Of a stretch of 64,000 nt of DNA, positions 11,701 through 38,356 are shown piece by piece. The position numbers and the translations under genes were made by a program. Every line of letters begins with the position of its first letter. Within the stretch, counting starts at the first letter, position 1. Where the stretch lies: positions 3,038,001 to 3,102,000 of the forward strand of contig OZ234493.1 in NCBI GenBank assembly GCA_965153455.1, written 5' to 3'. This stretch comes from Sphagnum compactum. Its lineage: Eukaryota. Under the pieces are notes generated by a model. It was given only the letters and a program-made list of their open reading frames with translations. It did no database searches and was not told the origin of the DNA.

Positions 11701-14190
11701 AGTCCAAGGCAGATGACAGTGACATTACCATTAATGCATGTTTCCCTAATTCCCACTGGGCCAACTCCATCTGTTGAGAGATAAAACTATAATCTTGTGA
11801 ACAAACACTAAGTTCACATGTCAAGGAAATGGACTACACATTGCAAAGAAATGCCTGTAGAAAGCTCATACTAACATCCCCAACTGAATTGGCAATGAGT
11901 GAGGGAAAGGCATTGTACGACATACAGAGAGTGAGAGAGACACCCCTAGATTTCTGTTTGAAAAGAGACACAGAAGGCAGCCTTCTAGCACCTCTCCAAG
12001 ATCTCTATACCCTAAACTCTCTCGCTGGTTGTTACTCTGTCTCAACTGACACAAGGCACAGACCCTGTTCCCATCTTGACTAGCACAAAATATACAACAA
12101 ATGCATGCACATTCCCATCTTGACTAGCAGAGACTGTACAACAAATGCATTCACATTCCCATCTTAAGCAACGCATTTGGAGAAGTCAAATGCTGGATTG
12201 AAAAAGCTGGAGCAGTATTGACCTGGCAAACCCAAAATCTGCAATCTTCAGCATAGCATTATTGTCATTGGTAGATAGAAGGAGATTCTGCAAAACAGCC
12301 CAACTTTCCAAGTCAGCAATGCATAAAGAAGATGGCAGTGAGATTCAAGTCAAAAAAAGCAAACATTCTGACTAAAGGGGCTGAATTTGAGCTTGGCCTC
12401 AAATAAAAATAGAGGACAACTTGAGAGTTGCATTAACATAATTAGACTCAGGCCTCTAGTATATTAAGCCACAATCTTGATTGGCATGTATATAACCCAC
12501 CACTAATAGTATCTTGCATCCAGACCAGTTCAGTAGGTAAACCTGTTCTGACTAATTTCAATTAGAGGAAAGAGGAACAAGCATATTGCCATTAACAGAG
12601 CACAAACCTAACCTGAGGCTTGAGGTCACGGTGTATCAAGTTGTTGTTGCGCAACACTTGAAGCCCAGCTCCTACAGATTATCCCCAAAAAGAATCTCAT
12701 AAATGGAAACGACTTAAAGATCACTCACCAGAAAGAGTACAGAAAAGAGACATGTGACCCAGTTCATCTTGAAAGCTTTGGATCCACACACCTGACTCAC
12801 AAGTATTCAGCTAAATGGTATCTCAAAGAAGTTAATTACCCACTACTCACAGCAAGACCTTTAGTTCAACATGCCTTCTCATTCTCTGAAATGGTTGCAA
12901 ATATGCATTGGACAGGTTAAAATGTTCTGCTTTCCTTGATAAGGTCGCAAACCCCTACCTAACTGGCGCATAAAGTGCCGGGCGGTTGCTTCAGAAACCC
13001 TGCCATACCGCTGGATGTATGCTGCCAAATCACCTCCAGCACAATACTCCAACACAAGGTATATTCGATTTGGAGCCTTGCAAATACCATCATCAATTCC
13101 AACCCAACAGAGCACACATCAATTTCTCCTGCATATAAGCCTTTAGACCTATCAATATGATGCAAAGAACAACAGAGAAGCAACCTAGGACCTTTTTCCT
13201 GCATGCATCCCAACAAAGGCAGACCTTCATAGAATAGCAGGAATCAAAAGTAAGCTTCAAACACCCCACAAAGGTAGACCAGCATCCAACAAAATTGTAA
13301 TGAGATGCTGCAGAGCACAACAGTAAAGAATCCAAAACCAATGCAAACACTAGCTTCACATGATCAGATAAAGAGGTCAAAAATGAAACTGGCATATGGC
13401 CCATGCAGCTCTTCTTTGTGTCCTCATCTGCATCCAGTAAGCATGCCAGATTTGCTCTTGACTACAACGACTAGTAGACTAGTTGCAGATGAGGCCTTGG
13501 CAGACAAATCCTGGATTTCTCAGAGAATAAAATCAGCAGACAATACCTCCACCAGAAACCCTGTGACTGCAGAATTTGACACCCCTTCAAACAGAAACCC
13601 TAACTCCAAAGGCTACACAGAGGAACAGCAGGAAATTCCTCCGTATAATCTTACACATATACTGGCTGATGTCCTAGAAAACATCCACGAGCTCTAAATA
13701 ATCCACAACCTCACGGGATTCCTCATGAATTTCCTTTCAAATTTGCAACCCAAAGAAAGCCCCTTGACTGTGAAATAGAGACTATTAGGTTACTTCGTCA
13801 TGTTTGTATCGAGCTTTCTGCTGCTCTCTTGCTAGGACATATGAAGTAGATTATATGGGGAAAATTGCGACAGTTGCACATAGCCAGATGCATAAAATTC
13901 CAAACCCTATTCGTTTTTCCACAGCAAGGGAAGCAGAACCACGGGCTGCTGCTAACCTCAACAATGTCATGAAGACGGATGATGTTGGGGTGGTCGGTCC
14001 GACGTAGGATGGCTATCTCGGACCGCAAACTCTCCTGCAGCTTCTTGTTCAACCGCTCTGTGATGATCTCCTTGATAGCCACGTGAAATTCCAGCTGCTG
14101 CTTATGGTGCGCCTTCCAGACCACGGCAAACGAGCCCGCCCCGATCTGCTCCGTCACCACATAATCCCCAATCTCCCGCGCACTCGACAT
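8759..14190 (-). CDS. ATG1: Serine/threonine-protein kinase ATG1 (autophagy initiation), 13 exons, ~687 aa
   Basis: Exons 14190-13957, 13076-12959, 12671-12613, 12287-12223, 11607-11514, 11377-11297, 11095-10984, 10833-10779, 10638-10268, 10153-9828, 9657-9411, 9170-9100 and 8989-8759. All introns are GT-AG and phases are consistent (2064 nt). Motifs: [44 protein letters not shown], and a C-terminal MIT-like region ([27 protein letters not shown]). Confidence 0.93.
12069..12165. repeat. Intronic tandem repeat, ~44 bp unit, ~2.3 copies
   Basis: TTCCCATCTTGACTAGCA...TACAACAAATGCAT.CACA repeated within ATG1 intron 4. Confidence 0.8.
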
Positions 14191-14874
14191 GATTACACCA
14201 TACAGCTTCTCTCTCTCTCTCTCTCTCTCCGTCACTCCCTCTCCTCCCTCACTCAATTTTGGCCGCGTTTCTTTATCGTTTCTTTTGGTTCCAAGCTCAA
14301 AAAAGTGGTTTTCTGCTGCTTTATAATTGATGAACAGTATGCCCAATGCTTTGTTTCTGCATCATGGAGCGCTTGCGAGCAGGAAACGCGAAGAGACCGT
14401 CGAGGCAAAAAAAGCATTTGGTCGACCCTGTGTTTTGTTTTCCCCATGCAACACGCCTCCAAAAGCCGACTAGCTAGCTCTGACGCCTGTGTCCGTCCTC
14501 CGGCCGTTTCAGGCGCCGCAATCGGCGAGCGACTTCGGCAGATTGGGGGGCCATGTGCGGCACCGTGAAACGTCTTGCGGTGATTACCGTTGATTTGGGA
14601 AATCCCAAATCTCATCTTTCAATCGTGAACGTTAGAAGTTTTCCAGATTTAGGCCCCTCATTTCCTCAGCTAAAATCGTGTCGGCGACCGTCACTAAAAA
14701 GCGCAACAGTTACGCACTCGGACGTAGGTATCTTTTTTTTTTCCTTTTTTTAAAATTTTTTTAAGAGGCGCACCCAATCGCTGCTGACCTCAACAATGGA
14801 GTGTTTCTCACTCAAGGAATTTAGCTCATCTCTAGGCTACCTTGTTCTATGTAGGCTAAAGGCCCAGGCCACAA

Positions 14875-16033: not shown

Positions 16034-16414
16034 TTATCTTCTTGTGTGGGGGTTGTCGGTGGACTGCTTTGCATACCTTCTTTTTAAGCGTGCTCTTTCT
16101 CCTTTCATATATCGCCTTACACAATCCCTAAAGCCAGCAGCACTTAATTCACCACCTACATATTCAAATTTCCCATCCAAGTGCAAGCGGAGTCTAGCCA
16201 TGTCTACAGGGTCCTGTTCTGTAACCTTAACCACTGCCATGTTCAAAGTCCGAGGTGCTAGCGACCTAATTGCACCATCCCATGCATCCTTCCCTTCACA
16301 TGCACCATCAATTTTGCCATGCCTTGTCACTTGCACCTTATGGCCTGGTAAGCCTTTTTCCTTTTGTTCTTGGGCTTCAAATTCTATAGCTCGCTTTGAA
16401 GCCCGTTGTTGCAT
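16034..16414 (-). mobile_element. TE-associated ORF fragment (possibly En/Spm-like accessory protein)
   Basis: Clean 126 aa ORF (WDGAIRSLAPRTL...FEYVGGELS...FRDCVRRYMKGERARLK) that resembles repeat-derived moss ORFs from memory. It is truncated and I could not build a host gene model. Confidence 0.35.
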
Positions 16415-16989
16415 CTACTTCTATTTCATTGTCCAAGGCCATGTCTGGTGCTTGCCCGCCCATGGGTGAATGTGGTTGCACCCTTTGACATAGCCCCTGA
16501 TCACATACACCCCCTCCTTCACCCCATGTTGATTCACACATGTTGCTTCTAGCCCTTCCACAAGTGGCACAATAGTTTGTAAGTTTTTGTGCCCAGGGCT
16601 CAATCTTACCTTCCAATTAGGACATTGTGACACTTGGCAACAACTCCACTGTCTTGTCTGCCCACATTGTCCAGCATTCCATGTGCATTCTGAACTTCCA
16701 ACACCATGTTTACATGCCTGATTATTGCACCTTGCAAAGTCACCACCATGCTTGCCACTTTGTACTGTTGTCGATGTGTTCTTTTGCAGTGGCATTCACC
16801 ATATTGACTTCTGGTCCGGTTTCAACCCGAGCTTTCTTTGATGTTGCTTTCTTTTCTCAAGCACACACACAACATGTTATACATAGGGAATGGGTAGAAG
16901 CTAGCAAAACATACAGTCTGGTCATATATTGTCAACATGAGACATGTAAATCCAAAAAAAACAGAGATTCCTATGGCAAACTTTTCAAT

Positions 16990-17900: not shown

Positions 17901-18329
17901 ATTATTTCTGGACATGAAAGAAAACCTGATACAAAAGAAAAACTCTGATGAACAAAAAGGGCACAATTCTAGATCTTAACTGAAAGTTTGAAGACACTCT
18001 GGATAAAGGCAATAATTTCCAAGAATAGTGATAGACTTTGCAAGCTCTGAATTTAAAGAAATGTTTACCACCTCAAGCAAAAACCTCCAATCTTGATAAA
18101 GGAAATCAAGAAAAAGTGAATTACCAAGACCCCTACAACACCACAGACCCATGTGTCTGGAATACGGAAGTGGTCCAATGCACACCTACTGGATCCATCA
18201 TTGGCTTGTGAGTTCTCCATCCCTTTCTACACCATGTTTAATACCAGCAACCTCAACCTTTGTACAAAGAAGAATCAGAAGAGGTTTGAACCACTAAGGA
18301 ATCACGAGTCCTCTTCTGTACAAACAAAA

Positions 18330-19280
18330 GAACTTTGGCCTTCCACTCACTTAATACATGGCCAACATCAAGACCGAGAACAGAAGGAGAAAACTCAGAC
18401 AGCAACATAAGCATACGAACCAAGTTCTTAGTCTTATACTTGGAGAGAAAAACAATAGAAAACTTACCTTGAGACATAAGAGAAGAAAGGAAAACCAGCA
18501 TTCTATTGTAATCTCTGTAGCCAAAAAATCTGTGAGGAGAAAGGTGAGGGATCCCACTATGATTTGGTTTCACATCATCAGAAGGAGAACCAGTCTCCTC
18601 AAAAACTGGCGAAGAAGGAGGAGGTAAACTTACAGCAACATTAGGAATAACATTGAGAGGAACCCAAACATTGTTAAAAGGACGAGCAAATGAAGGCTTG
18701 CTGCCCTTTCTCCACAACATTGCAAAAGCTTTATGTACCCTAGGAGAACGTCTATTGTTTGACTTGCCTTCTAGGTTGTAACCCTTTGGAAAGAAAGTGT
18801 GTAAAATACTCATCCATTTTCTTTCCAATTGAGAGGCAACAACCTTAAACAAGTTCAGAGCAAAACGACCTCCAGAATCAAAGAAATTCCCATCTACTTT
18901 TTCAATATGAAAAACTCTGAAGGAATGGAACCCTCTTTAGCAATGGCAGCATATAGTGGCTTAAAATCAAATTACGAACTAGCAAATTTAGACAATCTTT
19001 TAGCTTCTCTTATATGCTCTTGGAATCTCTCAAAGGCAGACTTACATGTGGAACCAACATATAGCATTCTACTATTATTGACACTGTAAATAACATAAAT
19101 TACCCCCTTATCTGAAAATGGACAGAGGCTAGTTGAAGAATTAAGGTGTTCTTGCCTAAGCCTTCTATCATAGTTGAGAGACTTAATGTTGAAGACAGAA
19201 AAATGAGTATTGGAAATTACCTTTTTAACTGGGCCCCATTTTATGTTTCCATTTCCAAATTTATGGAGCTTATGTGCTGT
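18330..19280 (-). pseudogene. GIY-YIG endonuclease module, copy 1 (Penelope-like element type), disabled
   Basis: Reads CPFSDKGVIYVIYSVNNSRMLYVGSTCKSAFERFQEH, then a stop (18972-18974) and a frameshift (~18930), then FRVFHIEKV...LERKWMSILHTFFPKGYNL (ORF 18253-18852). Confidence 0.8.
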
Positions 19281-22200
19281 AACATGTAAACCCAGAAGAC
19301 AATACTAGATATTCTACAAGTGGCCATCTCTAATGTGCAGTTTAAGGGCCAGTAAGCACATATCAGTTCTCATGTAACAAACGGGGCATTTGGACTAGTA
19401 AGACAAGCACGCAATCCCTAAAGAAAAAACTGATTTGCAAACTCATCAGGGAGACAATTCTAGTTTGGTAATTATACTTCTTCACATTCTTCAGGCACAA
19501 AAGCCCACAGAGCATCACATCTCTTTACAGTGTGGCTTGTGCAGTTGGAAGACAATCTTCACAATAATGCATCTACAGTAATCAGATGCAATGTCACTGC
19601 TTCTTGAGGAATCTTGGAGGGGGATAAAATGTAGCATTCAGTTCAGATATGATGTCAGAAGAGAAAGAAGAGAAGAAAGTTTTGTTTGTCTCTGTTTGTG
19701 TTATATCAAATATGATGGTGAATGCAAAACAGGTGTGCACCAAGTCCACAGATGATAAGGAACGATGCAAAGGAGCTCAGTGTTCAACCCAGGAAATACA
19801 ACAGTCATTTTTCATAATAAAACATGATGGGTGTACTTAGAAAGTACTAGAAATGGTCTTACAAAGTAGTCATACATCCATGAATTAATCAATCAATCAA
19901 ACAAACAAATAATCAATCAATCAATCAAATTTGTCTACCTTTCATCATCATGGCCTGGATATGTTGATGCCCTTTGATTTAAGATGACATCCATCATCAC
20001 CACTCTTGTCCCCAAAAGAAAACCCCTTAACAATATTTACATTATTATTCCTTCCTTCCTTCCTTTCTTTTCACCTTTATACACTGACTGATAATTGAGT
20101 AAATTCAAGCTGAAGTTGACTGTACATTTTTGTACAGATTACCATATTGTTTGTTGTCCAGTGCCAGTCATAATGACAAAAAAACAACATAGCACACGAA
20201 TAACAACAAGCACCCAAAACCAAACAAAACTGCAAATCAAAACCCACCAAGCACCCAAAACAAAATAAACCCTGCAAATCAAAACCCACAAGCACCCAAA
20301 GCTCGTGATCTAGATTTGAGTTTTTTAGCTCTTTGATAATGCTATGTGGAGTTTGAGTTGAACTTGTTAGTAGCTTTTTTGATAACCTTATGTGGAGCTT
20401 GAGTTGAGCTCTTTCTTTGACCGAATAACGTAAGTTTTTAGAGCCAAGATGAACCTTATCTCTTTGACCATCCATGTGCAACTCTGGAGAATTTTAACTG
20501 AGTTGGAAGTTTAGTTTTGTCATGCTCCTAGATCGTCGTCATCAAATAAGCTTTGGGACAATGTTCCACTGTGTGGCTAAAAAGCATATACATAACATGA
20601 CAGAAGAAGAATGACACCGAAGTTTTGCCTGCCGACTACATATATGACTAACTAACTTGAACAGATTGATGATCATATCTTTTCACCCTTTCATGACCTA
20701 TATATGCTATGTACGACAGACATTGCAAAATAGCTACCAAAGACCCCAAAATATGATGAGACCATGTGTAAATTAGGTGACCCAAAAAAAACAAAGAGAG
20801 TGAGGTATTGCCACCCATCTCACCCTCTTCATTAATTCCATGATCCTTCCCCTCAAATCATTAGCAAAACAATCCATCTGTCAAAAATAAAACAAAAAAA
20901 AGATCTTTGAAAATCTTTAAGGAATCTGTAAGGAAACAATACACTACTGCAGCAAAAACATGACATTTGGATGATTGGATTGTTGGAAAAAACAATTAGT
21001 CACACATGAGATTGCATCAAACAACACAAAATCACACACACCAGACTGCAGGAAAACACAAAATTGCACACCAGAAAACAAAAAATCACATACCAGGCTA
21101 CCAAAATCAGACACCAAAATTGCAGCAAAAGACACAAAATCACATAGTACCAGATTGCAGAAGAAAACACATAGCAGACACAGAGGGAGGGAGGTCGGGG
21201 CACAGAGTTAGGCTGAGTCACAAAGCCTATGGGGGGGAGTCTTTTTAATGTTTGTTAACATTTTACCAGAATTTGTTTGTCTGTTTTGTTATAGATCTTG
21301 CCTGTTTTTATTCTGCTTCAGTTTCATTTGCTAGAATAAACTTCAACTCAATACGGACTAGTAAGGCTCATAGGACCAATCACAAATCTCACAAATATTG
21401 TGCCTTCAATAATGTTGTTACTTCTAGTATCTTTGACATCAAAATGGACCTCAAAAACAATATTTGATGGGGGGGGGGGGGAGGGGTACATTACATTTGG
21501 TGTGGGGGTCCGTTTGCTAGGTGCCTTATTCTGTTCCTTCATAATTGAAGATGCAACTGGCAGCTCAGAACCTTCTGACTCCTCTGCATTTGAGTTGTAG
21601 TCGCTGCTACATGAAGTGTCGCATTCACTAGATGCTGCTGATGTCGACGACCCTTCCTCTTCCACCACATGACGATGTGGTTTTCCAACATTCCTAGTGT
21701 TCCTCCTCTTGCTTTGGTGTCCAAGCGTTCTCCCATCCACCACCTTTTGGGTGGACTTCTTACTTGTCTTCTTCCTCCCTTGCATGGTTGTTGAGTTCAT
21801 GAAGTGACGACTGCCAAGTGACCGAGTGTCTCCAAAATACAGCAAAGGAGTAATTAGTTTGGATTAAGACTGTCTCAATAAGCACATGACCACTAACTAG
21901 CATACAAACCTAATTTAAAGCTATGCATGTAGTAAAAGATTACCAGAAACCCTATTTCATGGTAGCACCGAACACATCGATTTCAGTCCCTAAACCCTAA
22001 CCCCATGAAAATTTTAGAATAGATTGGAATTCGGAGAGTAGCTACAACCTAACACTAGAACAAAGACTATTGAAGCGTGTTCAAACTATTTGGTAGGCGT
22101 ATACACAAATCTCACGCACATAGTCGGACTTCCAAACTCTTTCATACAGTGCAGGCAATGGAGATTGCACGATCCATTACTAAATTCTGTATGGGCCTCT

Positions 22201-23324
22201 CCATTTATGCACCTGAAGACAAGTCTAAGAAGAACTCACAATTCTTGGGCGCTTCCTTCAACTTCTGCAAGTCGTTGTTTGAGTTGAGCAACGCGCATGT
22301 TACATGCTAAAATGTAGGGGTTTGGCGTTGTTTCTTCGGGATCAGCATCCACTGGTCCTTCATCGTGACCCACTGTACCATCAACATCACTGATGACTGC
22401 ATTTTCGTCATGCTCCATCTGTACCTTACTCAAACAACTAGCCTTATGTTGGTCTTGCCTTAGAAATGCTAATTGTTATGTTATGCCACAAGCCTCCCCA
22501 ATGCTTCTACTCTTCCAAGTCTAGAAAAGTTGGTTTTTAGGGAAAGCCTAACAACCTTTGCAGTTTGAACTTGAACATGTTGAGCCCACACACAAGCATT
22601 TAATAGCTACCAATTCCCATGTATAGTACAAACCCTCATTTATTCTGGGGTACCTTTTAGATAGTTGCAACCAATTTTATTTCTTTAGAAGGGTGTGAAT
22701 AGGAACCTAACAAGGAGCATATTTTGCACATTAGGCTGATACTTCTGATTTTTCAGTCTGCACATCTAATTGGTCTAGGTAAAGTTCATGCAGTTTGTAG
22801 CAGTTTGTAGTTCATCAGTATATGAAATGTGTGAGTTTAGGGCTAACAATGATTTCATGATGTTCAAACATAATGCTAACATTTGTTGTGCATGGGGTAG
22901 TGTCCAAGGTAGATGTTGTGCATTGGAGGTATGATCTCCAATGTGCAGATTTGTCTAGTTCAAAAAATATAGTTAAAAAATCACTTCAATGTTCAAAATC
23001 AATACTTGGCAAGTAAATTGGAGTTGGCATATCCATTGGCGCTTTGTCAAAAGAAAAAACATGGTTGGACAGTAAACAATGTTCAAGTTGTAAAATCACA
23101 ATTTTTTAAATTACCATTAGTTAGCCAAAATAGGCTAAAATAGTATAATGCACATGTTGTAATTTGTAAGATATTCTGACTAGATGCAATGGCTCTGCCT
23201 TCTGCTTCTCTGGGTTTGTTTTCTCTCGGCTGGAGAAAACATCAAGGGCAGAGGGCAAGGCCCCTACCTATCAGTACACACCATACCACCCTCCTCAACT
23301 TAAAAACAGCCAAGAAGTTCAGCC

Positions 23325-23489
23325 AACGGTAATGGGCCGTTTCAGATCTTCAATCTGCTGTACATAGTTGATGGACCTTCCAATACCACCATGCATGCAA
23401 CTGATTTTTCTCTCTACGACAGCAGCAAGAGGCAGCCAGTTAAATAGCTTATTGACGCGCTGCCATACCCAAATGCCATCACGTTCTCC
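23325..23489 (-). pseudogene. BSL1: Isolated exon fragment of a BSU1-like (BSL1-type) Kelch phosphatase catalytic domain
   Basis: After a TGCAG acceptor it reads GERDGIWVWQRVNKLFNWLPLAAVVERKISCMHGGIGRSINYVQQIEDLKRPITV, then breaks off before the expected DLLWSDP. Confidence 0.8.
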
Positions 23490-24016
23490 CTGCATAATAT
23501 CAGTTCACAGGAAAACATTGTGAGGAACACTGGGTCCTGAGTTGCAACAGAAATTTCCCAAGAATGGCACATTTGGTAGTCAATTTTTCACAATGGTACT
23601 ACTCACCGAGACTTCTTTGTATAAGAATGGATATCCATCAACATTGCATCAGAGAAAATTGTGAGTCTATGTCTAACATGCGTGGATGGAAGAGAAAAGG
23701 CACAAACCATGTGTTCAATGCACTCAATGCGAAACCCTCTATCACATTGACCCTCTCTCTCAGTTCAACTACTTTGTTTGTGCTCACTTGTCCTACTTAG
23801 AACACTAGACAGTCAGAAGTAGAAATAAGTTCCCACATTCTACACCTACTGAGCAGGCAGGCTTATATCAGCATATCAAAGTCAACTGGGATGGTGATCT
23901 CCAACTAGTGCTGCTACATGCACAGGAATACATCGAGTCTAATTGGACTTGAGGCCACAGATTTACTTGGACAAAACAACTTGCAAACCTAGACAGGTGA
24001 ATATAAAAAGACATAC

Positions 24017-25113
24017 CTACAAGTTCCCTGCCATTGACGTATGGTCCCAATGCATTGATCTTCACAAATTTGTACTTCATGGCAGGCATCTGGATGGAGG
24101 CTGCATCCTCATGAACTTCTTCAACCTCAGAGTTGGCATTCAATGTCATCTCATAGTCATTATTCACATTTGAAAACTGCTTGTTTGCAACTCGCAGGCT
24201 GCCCTTGGTTATGAAGTACACCTGCACTTCAGGCCAGATTGCACAAACTAGGTTAGCTTGAGCACATGTCTACAAAGGGAATGAGGAAGCCCTGTCATCG
24301 TAGTCTGCAAACACACCACTTTGTAAGTTCAGCAGTGAAACCAAACTACAATGTCCACTAAAAGAAATGGTTGTATGTATGCTGCACCTTTCCTAATTGT
24401 AGTTTGTCAAAGAACTTGTCAGCTGCCTCTTTGAACATGGTTGCTAGAATCTGTGTTCCCTGAAGAAAAGTTTCATTTGACAAAAACATAAAGCTTGGGC
24501 CTTAGTTACAGGGAGACAATAGAGATTGCACATAGTGACAAAAAACACGAGAAAGAATGACGTAGGGGCATACATCTTCATCAGTGAGCTCCACGTTGAA
24601 CACATTGCCTGCCCTCGTGCATTCTTGAAGGAGCGCGGAGGTCCTTTACTGGTCACCCGCACTTTGATTGTCCAGTTTCCTTGATATGGATTAAGAGATA
24701 GTGTTGTGGGTGTATTCTCCTTAAGATACCCATCATCGAAGCAGGTGCAGAACTACAACCACCAATAAAATTCACATCAAAGCACCACCCATTGTTCAAT
24801 GACAGATCAGCACTGCTGCAAGATTGTAAAGGTACTTCCTGAGAGACATCTGAATATCTCAACTGGAACTCTAACAGACAGTGCATCAGCCAAACAAAAT
24901 GGTCAATGAAGAAATTCTTACTTTCCTCGCTGCTCCTGCACAATCTGGCCAGCAGATCTGAAATTGTGGTTGCCTTTGCTTGCCTTGGATTCTACTTGGA
25001 AGGTTGGCTTCACCTCCAATCTGATAGTAGGCTTCACGTCCATCTCTTGCTTGATGCCATGCTCAAACTCTAGCGCAGGTCCTACAACATCTCCTTTGGT
25101 GATCATCAGGACA
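24017..25113 (-). pseudogene. RPA1B: Internal fragment of replication protein A 70 kDa subunit (RPA70B/D type); 4 exons with introns, frameshifted
   Basis: Exons 25113-24922, 24752-24574, 24459-24388 and 24221-24017 read SAGQIVQEQRG, LSLNPYQGNWTIKVRVTSKG, GNVFNVELTDED, GTQILATMF and VYFITKGSLRVANKQF...YEMTLN. Frameshifts near 24705 and 24610. No 5' or 3' exons were found. Confidence 0.87.
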
Positions 25114-26592
25114 CTACAGCAGGCAGATCACTCAAACTTTCAGTTATACGACTTCTGAGATAGAGATTTTTATGGCTTTTTCCGGGAAAAAACAAATACC
25201 AGAGACAGATCTCATCAGGGAAAGAGAAACTCAGGGGGGGTACTTGGATACTTACAAGACCTCCAGGTTTGGATAGCCTAGAACATCTGCTGGAAGTTGG
25301 CCAATTAAGTTGCAATTCTCCATTATTCTACACATAAAAAACATTGCCATCAACAGCAGCAGCAGCAACACATACAGTGTGATGAAAGAGCTGGAGGATT
25401 TAACCAATCAACATTGGTTCAAGTGCTTTCAAGAAGCAAAGGCAGTTCTACTCACATTGTTTCCAGCTTCATTGTCTGGTTAAGCCAAGCTGGATAAAGC
25501 TGTTGGGAATATGGGTTATTGCTGAAGTCATGCCATTGTCAAAAAGTAAAAGAAACAATCAAAACCACACAAAAGCAAATGTATGCTCAAAACTAGGAGA
25601 AGGGTCTGGCTTTAGGCCCTTCCAGATTGGAGGCTCGTGTCATCAGGCCGGTAGGCTTAGAGGAGGGGTTGGAAATCTCAAAGCATCTAAAGCTAGACCA
25701 CATGTAAAGAAATGCCTGATTTTTTGTTTCATATTTTCTTTAAGAAAGGAACTTCCAAAATCTGGAAGGCCTAGTTGACAGCCTGTGGGGACCGCAGTTG
25801 CTGCCATGGTAGCTGCAGCAACCACTGAACTACAATCTGATCCAAGGCCCTCATCAACTCCTGCTGAAGCTCTATATATTGGAAGCTGTGACTTGGGCCA
25901 AAGTAAATGCCAGCCAAGATTGGGACAGTGGCAGTCTTCTGTATGGTGCCATTGGATTCAATTGTATTTCACAGTCTTGTTCTATTGAAGATAGCAGCTC
26001 CTTCTTGTTATTTGCAGCATGGAGAGAGGCCTGCACAACACAGTAATTAAAATCATTGACACCCTGTTTGTATAGCCACCTCAGTGAATAGCCCTAAGAG
26101 ACCATATATTCCTCCATATGCCTGTAAATCTCCTGTAAATGAGAGAGATGAAGTTCAAATTAGATTGGAACATAAATGGGCACAATGGTCCCACCTGCTC
26201 TGAAAGATTATGGTTATTTTCAAGTAGACCAGACTACAATGCCAATTTCTGCACATGCATTTAAGAACCACACACTTCACAAGAAAATGCAAACAAGGAA
26301 GGAGGAAAACAAAATGCAAGAACCATCAAATTTTTAGAGCAAAGATAGTTGCAAGTTCTTTAATGCCAATTGGCCCGTAAAGATGTTGATCATGAACAAT
26401 GATCAAAATCTTTAATGCCATAAAGCCCGTAAAGAATAATTAACTCAATCAATGCTATGGTAATCAAAACACAAGAAAATGCGAACAAGGAAGGAGGAAA
26501 ACAAAATGCAAGAACCATCATGTTAACCCCCTAGTGAATGGGGACCAGTTGCTAGGGTTCCAAACCCAATATTACAAACATGCAAACCCTAA

Positions 26593-28745
<2,153 letters not shown>

Positions 28746-31700
28746 TGCTCCTCCTCCTCCTCCTCCTCCTGCTCAGTCCGTTTGCTCTGTTCCAATTTTC
28801 AATAACTACAATTCAGTCACAAACCTGTGAATACAACCCCAGAACACAGAACCTCGAAAACTTGATGGGAACAAATCTAACAACCTGCTCCATTCACCTT
28901 TACTTCAGCTTCCTTCTCTAGCTCTGCAGTACAGGATGTAAGACTGCACATTGACTGTAAAACATCAGATTGGCTGCACTCTCTCCTGTACTTGAGTGTC
29001 ATGCTTGAAAGTTCATAGTTTTCAAAAACTGCAACTGGAACACTCTGTAGCCAAAGCCACATTCTGAATTAGCCTTGTGTCCACATTTCCTACACCGGAT
29101 ATTTTGTGCCTTCTGAGATATACCGGATGTTCACGAGAACATCGACAACAAGCATCTAGATTACTTCTGAGATGCTCAATCCCTGAATCCTGGTGGTACT
29201 TCTGAACTAGCAACTTTACTGTGACATTGCTTGAAAGCACGCTTGATGTAAGCAACAGTATTTTCTTTGTCGCATCCCCATACAGATTTCGTCATAACAG
29301 GTAGTTGTCATTTTCGTAAAGGGTTATTTAAAAGACTAGCCAGTACACTGGAATCAGGTGTTATCCGTGGGCAGAAGTTTGTCAGGTTGAGGTGACAATG
29401 GAGGTGCATGTACATTTGGTACAAACTACACATTTACTCTGGACCCTAACGACTTGGCTCTTAAACCCTGAACCCTTCAAACCCCAAATTGATCAACCCC
29501 CATATACCTCATAAAACACTGTTTTTTTAGCCATATATCTCATAATTAATGTTTTTTTGGGGAGTGAATTATCCCTTTCTTGTAAAAAAATTTAGGATAT
29601 TTTGGACAATGTTACTTTCTAATTTAATTTGAACCAATTTTGCTATTTTGAGGCAAATTTCGAGGAAATTATAACATCATATATATGGCACACTGCTAAG
29701 TTTCAAAACAAAACAATACTTTTTAGAGGGTGAATTTGCGTACCGTAAGTTAGAAATTGGAACTATATGAAGATAAATATGAAAAGACTGGAAATCCTTG
29801 GTTTGTCTATGTCAATTCTTGAAGATAAGAACACCAAAAAGGAAGAAGCCAGAGTTTCTAGACTAGATCCCTGTGGTCAGGGAAAGAAGCTATGGATTAA
29901 CCTAACTGTTTTAATATCAATCCAAGAATTCTTGTGTGAGGGAAGGAGTAGGCGGCTCTGGTCCAATTTCTCAGGTGAATAACAGTTTAAGAACGTGATG
30001 GAATTTTATACTGGAAATATAAGTAGGTCTTCTTGGTGTGGTATAGACTTTTTAATAGACTAGCTAGTCCTTGTATAGGGTGGAAAAGGTATGGGTTTTC
30101 CCCGCCCCTCCTCTCCACTTTCCCATTCCAGGCCGGTACTGGTATTGGGTACTTTCATACCCGTCTGGTCTAGCTATTGGTTTCAAGACACGGACTATTG
30201 ATTACTATGGAGCAAGTATAATCGTATGTACGCATGTTGGGTGAGTATATTGATTTTTAATATATCGGCCAGGTAAGGTTACTGTAATACCTGAATGGAT
30301 TTGGCATAAATTAAATTCTTTTTCATTTTTTCAAATTTTTGAAAAATTATTTAGTATCTGTGCCGAAATTTACATAAAATCAAAAGTTCAACTATCAGGT
30401 TTTAATCACAAACCTTCAAGTACCATCTTAACGACACCCTAGATTTCCACAACCTTGAAAAGCGACTATTTATTATTTTATATGCCCATTGTCTGCCGAA
30501 AATTTCAAAATTAAAACCAAGTGCCAACATTAAAAATTAAAAGATAATTAATTATTCGACAGTTTGTTGCTGAAACCGATTTCAAAAGATCTAATTCAAG
30601 TAAGGAAAAGGGTATATAGGCTATTCAGAATTCTCATTCCCAAGTAAGGGTAAAAGACCATCATTCACCTTTTTGATAGGATAAGGACATGTGTTTTTTT
30701 TTTCAAAGTTTATCATCTAAGTATATGTCGGTAAGTATCAAAATTCTCCAAATTCTCAAACATATTCGAGAGGTTTGTGAAGGAATTTGAAAAGATTAGG
30801 GTGAGAATATTGTTCTTCTTTTGGTGATAATACAAATAACTAATTCTCAACTCTTAACTTTTTTCCTTACTTGAAACTTCAAGCCAAAAACTAATGAAAC
30901 ACAGTTTAATCCTACAAGTTACATTATACACATTCTCATCAAATGGAAAGTGAAAGAAGTACACATGCAACATATGGTAGTGAAGAGTGATCTTAAACTC
31001 AATCATAGGTCATAAAATGCAAAAAGAAATATGAAATAAATACACATGTAATGAAATATATAGGTCTGAAAAGTGTAGTCACACTTACAACTATTGGCTT
31101 TAGCATATTTTGCAGGATGATCCACAATTTTCATGTTTAGATTAGGCAAGCTGGAGAAATGATTTTCATTGGTTCGCATGTGTAGAGGCAGCCAATTAGA
31201 AACAAAATTCCAAACCTTCCGACATATTCCGTACCTTCCATCTGGCATACTTGCTTCAAGAAAAGTACCTAAATTCTCAAAAGGTTCTCAAGAAAGGCCA
31301 TTCTCCTATACAAAAAATCAAGTGTATTTCATGTAGTGTAACACCCTCAGAGTAGGGAGTTCCAGAAGTAAGTGACAGCCGATTACACTAAGAAAAATCT
31401 TGAAGGTTTTTACAATGGGGGGACAACAACACCCCCCCCCCCCCCCACCCCAAAAAACAATGATCCTAAAATTTCACTACTCTCAAGAGGCCCAAAGTCA
31501 AATTGGAATATAAGAGTTATTGTATAGTTTCCCAATTAGGGGACGAGAACGGCCAATTTCAACATAATAGGGCACCAAACATGTAACTGGGAATGAAATT
31601 TTTACAAAGCGAAATAACTAGGACCCCAACTAGTTTTTTCCACCAATTTTGGTGATAAACTGAGTTTCATCCTGTCTTTCTTTTTTTCCTGAGCGCCTCC

Positions 31701-36177: not shown

Positions 36178-36737
36178 AGATGAATTGCACAATCCACGAA
36201 GAGAAAGTTGTTTTCTATGTGCATGTTAAGCAACCCTAAGATAGTTCTAGTTCTTCTATGAGTGAAGATGAATTGCACAATCCATTAAAGAAGAAACTTG
36301 TTCTCTATGTGCATGTTAAGCAACCCTAAAATAGTTTTTGTATGAGTGAGGATGAATTGCACAATCCATTAAGAAGAAAGTTGTTCTCTATGTGCATGTT
36401 AAGACACTAAAATAGTTCTTGTACGAGTGAGGATGAATTGCACAATCCATTAAGAAAGAATGTTGTTATGTATGTGCATGTTAAGCAACCCTAAAATAGT
36501 TCTTCTCTAAGTGAGGAATAATTGCAAACCTTGTTCTCTAATGTGCATGTTAAGCAACCCTAAAATAGTTCTTCTCTAAGTGAGGAATAATTGCACACCT
36601 TGTTCTCTAATGTGCATGTTAAGCAACCCTAAAATAGTTCTTCTTTGAGTGAGGAATAATTGCAAACCTTGTTCTCTAATGTGCATGTTAAGCAACCCTA
36701 AAATAGTTCTTCCATGAGCGAGGATTAATTGCAAACC
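36178..36737. repeat. Minisatellite, ~7 units of 69-89 bp
   Basis: Core TTGTTCTCTA(A)TGTGCATGTTAAGCAACCCTAAAATAGTTCTT repeated; four longer units are followed by three shorter, near-identical units. Confidence 0.93.
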
Positions 36738-37112
36738 ATTGACCTTTTGGGTTAGAATACTGATTAGATACTAGTAAGGGTTTAGTTTGAATTTGAACTT
36801 GAGCTTCATGTATGAGGAGCACATACTTTTGGAACAAGAACTTTTGTTTTGTATCTTCTTGCAATTGGATGTGGTGGTTGTGAAGCTGAACAAAGAAAAA
36901 AAAAGAAAAAACCCCCCAACAAGAGTTTCTCTCTTTCTGATTGACATCACGTAATGAGGGCTATGTCCATTCTGCAAGAACCTACATCATAAGGATTGGA
37001 TTGTCTTACACTAAAGCACATTCATGTTAGCTTGTGTACCATTTGCAAGCTTCCATGGGTGGACAAGTTTGGGAGATACCTCGTTTCGCCATCGTCACCA
37101 TGAGCTGGGAAA

Positions 37113-38356
37113 TCATATTGTACTCGGAGTTGGAAATGTGCTAATCCTTTCTTCATGAGCAGCAGCTGAATTCCTGTTGCTAATTAATCTCGGTAGTTGT
37201 TGCAATTGTGATGATGGCTGTGGTGGGGAGGAGGAGGAGGAAGACTTCATGATGATGTTGTTGTTGCTGTTCTTCTGTGTTGGGAATAGCAGCAGACTCA
37301 TGCGGCAGAGTGGACATGTCGAGTTGTTTGCAAGCCATTCATCAACACAAGCTTTATGGAAGATGTGACTGCATACTGGCAGTTGCTGCAAAGTTTCGTT
37401 CTTTTGGTAATCTCCCAAGCACACTACACATCTGCAACAGACAGCAGCAGACATAATTGTTACTATTGAAGAATGTGCATGAATCAATGAGTGAGGGGAG
37501 CTTCACATAGGTAACGAAATCTGAGAATCAAATCAATGTGTTTTTTGATAACCCACTGCTAAATTTCTTGCCAAAGGAAAAACAAATCTGCTGGGGTGGG
37601 TCGGTGGGGTTCTTCGTCAAGCTTGATAAAGAAGAAAGATTAGTATCATAGATGCTCACTGATTGTCCATGAGTACTGTGGCAGAAGTAGAAGAAGAGGA
37701 TTTTGTTGTCAATTTTTCATTGTAGATAATGACTGGTAGTCCATCCCGGATTGACTTCTTCAAGCCTCTTCTTGGCTGCAGCAGCAGCATCCATCATCAT
37801 CATCCCCATTCCCCCCATCATGCAACACATGAGAAAACAAAACAGATGTGAGTTCTAAGGGAATAATTCCAAATCCTCCTGCCAAATGTTCTCACATGTC
37901 TAAGAACTTCTGTCTAGATCAGAAAGTCTCAAGAGAAAATAATGTCAAGAGAAAGTGAAAATCTCTTTTGGTTTCCTGACGGTATTATTGTGGAAGAGAT
38001 CATATGGCAATAGGAGATTGGTTTCTTACAACAGCAAAGAGGGTGCTTGGAATGAACCGGCTCAAGCTGCTCCTTGTTGTTGCTGTTGTTGCTGTTGTTG
38101 TTGGGGAGTTGTTGTGATCAACATGTGAAGCTGAATCTGCTGCTTGTAGTATGAGAAGACAATGTCGGCGTAAACAGATGAGGAGGAAGAGAAACAAGAG
38201 GACAAAGGTGATCAGGATTGGTGTTGCCAAAACAAAAGCTTGATAGACCTTGAGATGTGGTGTTGTTGTTGTTGATGCAGAAGAAGAAGAAGAAGACCCA
38301 TCCACCACCGGCCGAGGAGTACAGCATCCCACATTATTATCATCATCATCTCCCAT
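37113..38356 (-). CDS. ATL-family RING-H2 E3 ubiquitin ligase (ATL7/58/59-like), 3 exons, ~253 aa
   Basis: Exons 38356-38030, 37775-37660 and 37431-37113 are GT-AG and in phase (762 nt). N-terminal TM segment (KVYQAFVLATPILITFVLLFLFLLICLRR), GLD-like motif GLKKSIRDGLPVIIY, and RING-H2 CVVC...CSHIFHKACVDEWLANNSTCPLC. Confidence 0.9.

Follow-up and report, generated by a model that had tools for sequence, protein, structure and literature searches.

A 6-kb train of gene fragments lies on the minus strand of a 64,000-nucleotide stretch of the moss Sphagnum compactum (contig OZ234493.1, positions 3,038,001–3,102,000), referred to here as the window. Positions 23,059–29,050 of the window hold intron-bearing, damaged fragments of at least five unrelated peat-moss genes, including RPT2, RPA70, and BSL. 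Related copies of part of the train occur on metagenome contigs, and in three of them the cargo is physically joined to a CACTA transposon end. The train probably consists of host-gene pieces that were transduplicated as cargo by non-autonomous CACTA (En/Spm) transposons, a 'Pack-CACTA'-type family in a Sphagnum-type moss.

Gene fragments in the train

Read 5′ to 3′ on the minus strand, the fragments occur in the order thioesterase, RPT2 exons 1–4, bZIP, leucine-rich repeat (LRR)-like exons, RPA70, BSL exon, and tail (Table 1). Five source genes have tool support (thioesterase, RPT2, bZIP, RPA70, and BSL) and one, LRR, is a weak call. GT/AG borders were read in the sequence of all fragments, and introns are retained in the RPT2, RPA70, and bZIP pieces, which excludes a retrocopy or processed pseudogene. 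The closest named proteins are from Sphagnum fallax, S. troendelagicum, S. balticum, S. jensenii, and S. compactum. Sequencing runs that match the stretch include some labelled 'moss metagenome'; word shares were 0.45–0.65 for DNA runs and 0.20–0.26 for metatranscriptome contigs, values that do not count as evidence for presence, absence, or expression. The original prediction, made from the letters of the window, had placed co-oriented host-gene fragments at about 23170–29400; the pieces it named were found there or close by, all on the minus strand. It had also called the recognizable pieces truncated or frameshifted, and lesions were located in RPT2, RPA70, and bZIP. Its argument that retained introns rule out retrocopying agrees with RPA70 introns that are 89–95% like those of the parent-like locus. 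Its 3′ limit of 23170 has to be moved, as family-shared sequence was found down to 23,059.

The RPA70 fragment comprises four exons inside 25,127–24,016 (PDB 4gnx_C, E 4.5e-10; tblastn with the parent-like locus) and has 89–95% DNA identity to full RPA70 loci (L002–L006) on metagenome contigs. It has gained 2 nt at one site, lost 1 nt at another, and lost 1.7 kb internally. The best solved match of the BSL exon is BSU1 (9tp7, E 5.4e-13), and the exon is also present in metagenome loci L011, L014, and L015.

RPT2 is represented by its first four exons. A (GGA)n run precedes exon 1, which is 94% identical to an S. fallax partial model, P0171, and has lost its start, with AGG in the window for the relatives' ATG (RGQGQSGG vs MGQGQSGG in relative P0179). 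Exons 2–4 have AAA matches (E 1.2e-14 and 8.7e-8) and align to residues 158–244 and 303–348 of 444 of the plant proteasome chain 8amz_I. One codon is lost in exon 2, where a relative reads QIQEIKEAVELP. The Walker A motif is GEAGTGKT in the window vs GEPGTGKT, and DACADVK stands in the window vs DSRGDVK. The frame changes at a G run in exon 4, placing YDAHSGG and GGEREIQ in different frames, and the fragment is truncated within this exon after ...ALLRP, at residue 348 of 444.

P0171 (KAH8965214.1, 'hypothetical protein BDL97_04G106400, partial [Sphagnum fallax]', 304 aa) consists of the same four RPT2 exons as the window and has the identical end residue. Both have the GEA.TGKT Walker A and DACADVK, and P0171 keeps the codon that the window lost. 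A protein search with the exon-1 open reading frame (ORF) gave 1,202 matches, of which 120 were listed and 24 of those fetched. Among these listed matches, 13 of the 24 fetched have a Sphagnum-type N-terminus or intron read-through. Three of the 13 are intact, all from one 161-member cluster, and probably represent the parent gene. The other 10 are degenerate, with a frameshift, deletion, or lost start: P0141, P0143, P0155, and P0157 are frameshifted, P0059 has a 5-residue deletion, and P0060, P0145, and P0147 have numerous replacements. P0150 shares the lost start of the window, yet has other upstream sequence and a break within exon 1.

Upstream of RPT2, the thioesterase exon aligns to residues 205–249 of 276 of FatB (5x04, E 2.5e-7) and terminates at a GT donor near 28,877. 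It names part of a piece at 28870–29400 that had been reported without a name; the remainder of that piece, 29,051–29,400, gave no match, and an 89-aa ORF at 29,022–29,291 had no Pfam or PDB match. Downstream of RPT2, the spacer contains a 51-nt direct repeat (98%; 26,278–26,328 and 26,470–26,520) with 192-nt spacing.

A second piece left unnamed, at 25450–26140, is a bZIP-gene fragment (26,248–25,826) followed by weak LRR-like exons. The bZIP fragment begins with the end of a leucine zipper (26,248–26,189), followed by an intron and an exon at 26,033–25,826 that is readable in two frames. ORF 25,872–26,093 had five protein matches at E ≤ 0.001 in an all-library search, and two of the five splice 26,248–26,189 to 26,033–25,875 as exons. 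The cluster of a 326-aa match includes S. fallax BDL97_08G061400 (774 aa), which has a bZIP_1 domain at residues 402–462 and is 56–58% identical to the window piece in two frames (tblastn). This identity indicates that BDL97_08G061400 is a paralog of the true parent, relative to which the window piece is frameshifted. Short gene models (72–83 aa) have been placed on copies of the bZIP fragment in S. fallax (BDL97_05G077700), S. troendelagicum, and S. balticum. A protein search with frame 25,771–25,968 gave no match, and an Atlas search with bZIP relative P0195 gave no usable match. For the LRR-like exons, the sole PDB match is the LRR receptor PSKR1, at a non-significant E of 2.2, and Pfam gave no match.

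Table 1. Positions of the train fragments and flanking genes in the window, and of CACTA ends in related metagenome loci
Feature	Position	Strand	Basis or remark
RING-H2 ORF	37,116–37,502	minus	zf-RING_2, E 1.4e-14
Stretch upstream of thioesterase exon	29,051–29,400	minus	membership in train uncertain
Acyl-ACP thioesterase C-terminal exon	28,892–29,050	minus	PF20791, E 1.1e-6
RPT2 exon 1	~28,743–28,260	minus	PF16450, E 1e-10
RPT2 exon 2	~27,410–27,168	minus	8amz_I residues 158–244; tblastn with P0171
RPT2 exon 3	~27,043–26,873	minus	AAA domain, E 1.2e-14; tblastn with P0171
RPT2 exon 4	~26,739–26,593	minus	8amz_I alignment; tblastn with P0171
Spacer of unassigned origin, ~340 nt	26,249–26,592	minus	between RPT2 and bZIP
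bZIP-gene fragment	25,826–26,248	minus	zipper end, intron, next exon
Two 72-nt LRR-like exons with GT donors	25,252–25,540	minus	weak call, by eye
RPA70 fragment (linker and DBD-A, four exons with introns)	23,825–25,217	minus	full RPA70 loci, PDB
RPA70 intron scrap, 93 nt	23,732–23,824	minus	1.7 kb further downstream in parent-like gene
BSL/BSU1-type phosphatase exon, single	~23,328–23,489	minus	Metallophos, E 9.3e-6
Tail common to other family copies	23,059–23,327	minus	homology with L015
Protein-kinase first exon	13,801–14,361	minus	Pkinase, E 5e-15
CACTA ends	L015 1823; L008 2252 and 4305; L010 2302		L008 has an inverted one

Related copies and their CACTA ends

Metagenome contigs were scanned with a 68-aa RPA70 exon as the query, and 16 loci (L001–L016) were recovered, 14 of which match the window at the DNA level. 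L013 and L016 (69% and 49% protein identity) have no DNA match to the window and were excluded from copy counts. L002–L006 represent two versions, about 90% alike, of a single locus. A full RPA70 gene is present in L004, where Rep-A_N, the window's exons, REPA_OB_2, and Rep_fac-A_C are arranged in order; the window's match to this gene extends from intron 2 to the one that follows DBD-A and resumes for 93 nt after a 1.7-kb gap. An intact RPA70 gene therefore exists elsewhere. The remaining nine loci (L001, L007–L012, L014, and L015; seven of the nine from one metagenome) are further fragment copies, 93.5–97.8% like the window and set among differing neighbors. Their 5′ breaks fall at 24,954 (L001, L007, and L009) or 24,332 (L011 and L012), and their 3′ breaks at 23,965 (L007 and L008), 23,836 (L009 and L010), 23,473 (L001), and 23,059 (L015), with short microhomologies at the breakpoints. 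A stretch at L012:112–507 was considered as a saccharopine-dehydrogenase-like piece and was dropped for lack of Pfam or PDB support.

In a midpoint-rooted tree of 368 shared columns, from which L008, L014, and L015 were omitted as covering only part, the window and six copies form a clade separate from five parent-like rows (support 99/98). RPA70 exon b has the 2-nt insertion wherever a copy spans the site (four of four: window, L001, L007, and L009), and none of the five parent-like loci has it. The 1.7-kb deletion junction of the window is found in L001, and L011, L012, L014, and L015 align across the same junction. The RPA70-to-BSL order is repeated in L001, L011, L014, and L015. These shared lesions indicate that the damage preceded copying, with a single capture followed by amplification and reshuffling.

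The proposal of captured cargo is thus supported for the RPA70+BSL and RPT2 blocks, both of which are multi-copy, with further diverged copies and shared derived lesions; the bZIP block is supported less strongly, by further diverged copies elsewhere. Queries with RPT2, thioesterase, bZIP, and LRR had no match in any of the 16 loci, which take in 9–10 kb upstream and 4–6 kb downstream of the RPA70 gene. A decayed segmental duplication, with the parental genes adjacent in the same order, is thereby contradicted for RPA70, as the other genes are absent from the surrounding contig. The original prediction had also proposed looking for a second copy of the whole train, and none was found among the fetched loci.

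In three of the nine copies (L008, L010, and L015), ~100-bp tandem repeats and then a subterminal region come after the cargo, each time in the same orientation. The tandem repeats (at 1,036–1,430 in L015) each contain 2–4 telomere-like CCCTAA units. The subterminal region finishes ...AAATTTCTAGTAGTG in all three, and no sequence is shared beyond the last base. In summary form, the family terminus is ...CTAGTAGTG. Read from outside it is CACTACTAGAAATTT..., common to these three ends and a fourth, inverted one in L008; outside all four, the flanks have nothing in common. Within ~215 nt of its tip, each end has 4–8 TGCAACT/AGTTGCA motifs, with both orientations represented. The repeat family was tested for membership in the CACTA superfamily, and both shared termini with unrelated flanks and two-orientation subterminal repeats were found. 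As the cargo runs into this terminus in three copies, the carrier is assigned to CACTA/En-Spm ('Pack-CACTA'-like) and not to a Helitron or Pack-MULE. A Pack-type DNA transposon had been one of the carriers originally suggested, and the termini of the three related copies now specify the CACTA superfamily. CACTA is the commonest classified repeat type, at 6.8%, in published Sphagnum genomes as described in PMC9946827. A terminus scan of the genome-contig and viral-contig collections gave 0 matches in each.

The L008 ends at 2,252 and 4,305 are of the same family and stand back to back, 2 kb apart. This suggests two elements inserted close together, a layout that the Arabidopsis capture model requires. 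The ORF just past the CACTA end of L015, at 2,230–2,661, matches a retroviral-polymerase SH3-like family below the cut-off (E 3.8e-5) and looks like a copia-type remnant.

Between cargo and end, L008, L009, and L010 have an ORF with 57 relatives at E ≤ 0.001, each a distinct entry in a database that was clustered at 90%. PF26133 was found on 2 of the 57. Its closest Atlas clusters, DUF8039/TNP1-En/Spm, score 0.91; this is below recognition level and serves as a lead only.

The window parts from L015 at 23,059, at a shared CCATG, beyond which L015 has the tandem repeats and the window has unrelated sequence. The cargo agrees with that of a Pack-CACTA, with several host-gene fragments and no transposase family in the scanned ORFs. 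No termini or target-site duplication (TSD) were found for the window copy, so it is not an intact Pack-CACTA, and it has no DUF8039-like ORF. It looks like an immobile terminal-deletion derivative.

Several candidate ends were tried and rejected. The best CACTA-like pair, at 22,053/31,338 (TTA/TTA), agrees at only 15 of 25 positions, has no second copy and no subterminal repeats, and was treated as chance; 95 pairs were tried, 3 with a matching triplet. For long terminal inverted repeats (TIRs) around the train, the best flank inverted repeat scored 26.8 bits vs 24–31 bits in 20 shuffles, and the train is not enclosed by any well-matched inverted pair of ≥20 nt. A CCCTAA-rich spot at ~36.2–36.8 kb was considered as a subterminal module and is a ~60-bp minisatellite unrelated to the CACTA subterminal repeats. 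This minisatellite (36,200–36,760, TTTTAGGGTT core) lies just downstream of the RING-H2 ORF. A G13 tract (21,463–21,485) and a C15 tract (31,432–31,454) form an inverted pair around the train, 9.9 kb apart; they have no extended inverted repeat, and the pairing is therefore probably chance.

The train is flanked by a protein-kinase first exon and the RING-H2 ORF, both on the minus strand. Also on the minus strand, 18,256–19,304 holds adjacent long ORFs of 110 and 227 aa. A GIY-YIG nuclease match of the first is borderline (E 1.2e-4, 22.8 bits vs a cut-off of 22.6), and no reverse-transcriptase or other family was seen in the pair. Just downstream of the train are a 171-aa serine-/acid-rich minus-strand ORF (21,351–21,863) and an exon-like minus-strand stretch at ~22,240–22,430 that begins MEHDENAV..., both without a family. 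Pfam gave no match for the flanking ORFs 16,037–16,795, 20,080–20,493, and 21,351–21,863.

Origin of the train

Under the CACTA reading, pieces of unlinked genes, introns included, would have been captured by elements with CACTACTAGAAATTT... ends and TGCAACT-type subterminal repeats. The cargo would then have decayed, as the shared 2-nt RPA70 frameshift and the shared RPT2 Walker-A and DACAD changes suggest. Decayed cargo may subsequently have spread through the genome and been reshuffled by deletions and replacements, presumably moved by a CACTA transposase supplied in trans. The window copy would have kept the cargo from thioesterase to tail and lost the subterminal region and terminus, either through aberrant excision or through later deletion. 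The upstream half (thioesterase to LRR) may have belonged to the same element as RPA70-BSL, judging by its co-orientation, tight packing, and multi-copy parts.

Several results weigh against this reading. In the window, the family terminus has 0 matches at ≤3 mismatches, the copy has no subterminal module, and the train flanks have no enriched short repeats. Both ends of one element occur on no recovered contig, and the scanned ORFs include no transposase family. Pfam run directly on the cargo-end ORF gave no match, leaving the DUF8039/TNP1 likeness without direct Pfam support. No fetched locus contains window sequence upstream of 25,217, so the upstream half is seen joined to RPA70-BSL solely in the window, and three upstream-half junctions (~28,790; 26,593–26,249; 25,217) have no independent support. 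The samples could also mix moss species, in which case some copies may be orthologs, although their differing junctions argue otherwise.

A rival reading is a composite origin, in which only RPA70-BSL-tail would come from the CACTA family and the thioesterase, RPT2, bZIP, and LRR pieces from other elements or insertions side by side. None of the copies with sequence upstream of RPA70 (L001, L007, L009, L011, and L012) has LRR, bZIP, or RPT2 there, and RPT2 copy P0150 combines the window's lost start with different upstream sequence and a different 3′ break. Against this, all pieces share one orientation and lie close together, uninterrupted by termini, and the RPT2 and bZIP pieces are multi-copy and degenerate, as expected of like cargo. 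We consider a composite unlikely. A patchwork made without a transposon (segmental duplication, ectopic repair, or filler DNA), with the nearby CACTA ends as unrelated insertions, would suit a window copy that lacks termini and target duplication, and copies separated by many breakpoints with short microhomologies. Against it stand the identical end module that follows the cargo, identically oriented, in three copies of differing structure, and the many dispersed degenerate copies with shared lesions; it is judged very unlikely.

Helitron or Helentron cargo was the other carrier originally suggested, and like the gene-fragment Helitrons of maize the train consists of co-oriented, intron-bearing pieces. 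Helentrons have been reported for Sphagnum magellanicum (PMC11417382), and a hairpin GTTTTCTC..GAGAAAAC followed by CTAG and T stands at 23,240–23,179. However, L011, L014, and L015 are 95–97% alike across 23,180, to 23,093, 23,082, and 23,059, respectively; L011 and L015 differ at their other junctions and are therefore non-orthologous. What defeats the Helitron reading is that homology between copies continues through this sole hairpin-CTAG candidate; three related copies finish in a CACTA terminus instead. Its probability is rated very low. Pack-MULEs are classic carriers of multiple gene fragments. A Pack-MULE reading nevertheless fails because no flank inverted repeat exceeds the shuffled controls. 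An assembly artefact could be suspected at the three junctions listed above, but the order RPA70-scrap-BSL-tail is seen again in independent contigs (L001, L011, L014, and L015) and the four-exon RPT2 piece with the same end is found again in S. fallax. Together, Pack-MULE cargo and artefact are given only a slight chance. Non-autonomous CACTA cargo remains the preferred explanation of the train.

Significance and comparison with known systems

CACTA gene capture is documented in flowering plants and is a known plant route for exon shuffling. Bryophyte elements of this sort are apparently undescribed; no moss description was found in the literature searched, supplements aside, and the main text of a survey of Pack-TYPE elements (PMC8903248) makes no mention of moss, bryophyte, or Physcomitr. 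Fragments of the family have been deposited as Sphagnum proteins (P0171, P0214, P0193, and P0197), as a 304-aa 'partial' RPT2-like model and 72–83-aa bZIP-like models. Such entries can lead to overcounted genes and to wrong orthology assignments. Trains of this kind, were they transcribed, would supply sequence for exon shuffling or for RNAs that silence essential genes. A more ambitious and rather doubtful possibility is a large, recently reshuffling peat-moss Pack-CACTA family that packs core-gene exons (RPT2, RPA70, BSL, bZIP, and thioesterase) into co-oriented, splice-competent trains, several of them annotated as proteins across Sphagnum genomes. It would be the first described case of transposon-driven exon shuffling in a bryophyte, with possible chimeric transcripts or small RNAs against parental housekeeping genes.

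In the gene-fragment Helitrons of maize, intron-bearing pieces of unrelated genes likewise line up in one orientation. No Helitron ends were found for the train, and related copies terminate in CACTA ends. A soybean CACTA element studied by Zabala and Vodkin in 2007 reportedly carried exons of several genes that could be spliced together. The train resembles soybean CACTA elements in having exons from several genes.

The Arabidopsis Pack-CACTA elements described by Catoni et al. 2019 (PMC6379663) are likewise non-autonomous, with CACTA-type termini and internal fragments of several unlinked host genes, and in both systems the ends are common to the family and the cargo varies. The moss family differs from the elements of that description in a terminus that begins CACTACTAG, not CACTACAA, in ~100-bp subterminal tandem repeats with CCCTAA runs, and in its moss host. 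The window copy differs further in lacking both ends; terminal-deletion derivatives produced by aberrant excision are described in the same report. Pack-TYPE elements of maize and rice are defined in PMC8903248 by TIR and TSD, a definition that leaves the window copy outside. In that survey, the Pack-CACTAs of maize have the most distinct captured loci per element, and the window train, with five or six source genes, is like them in its multi-locus cargo.

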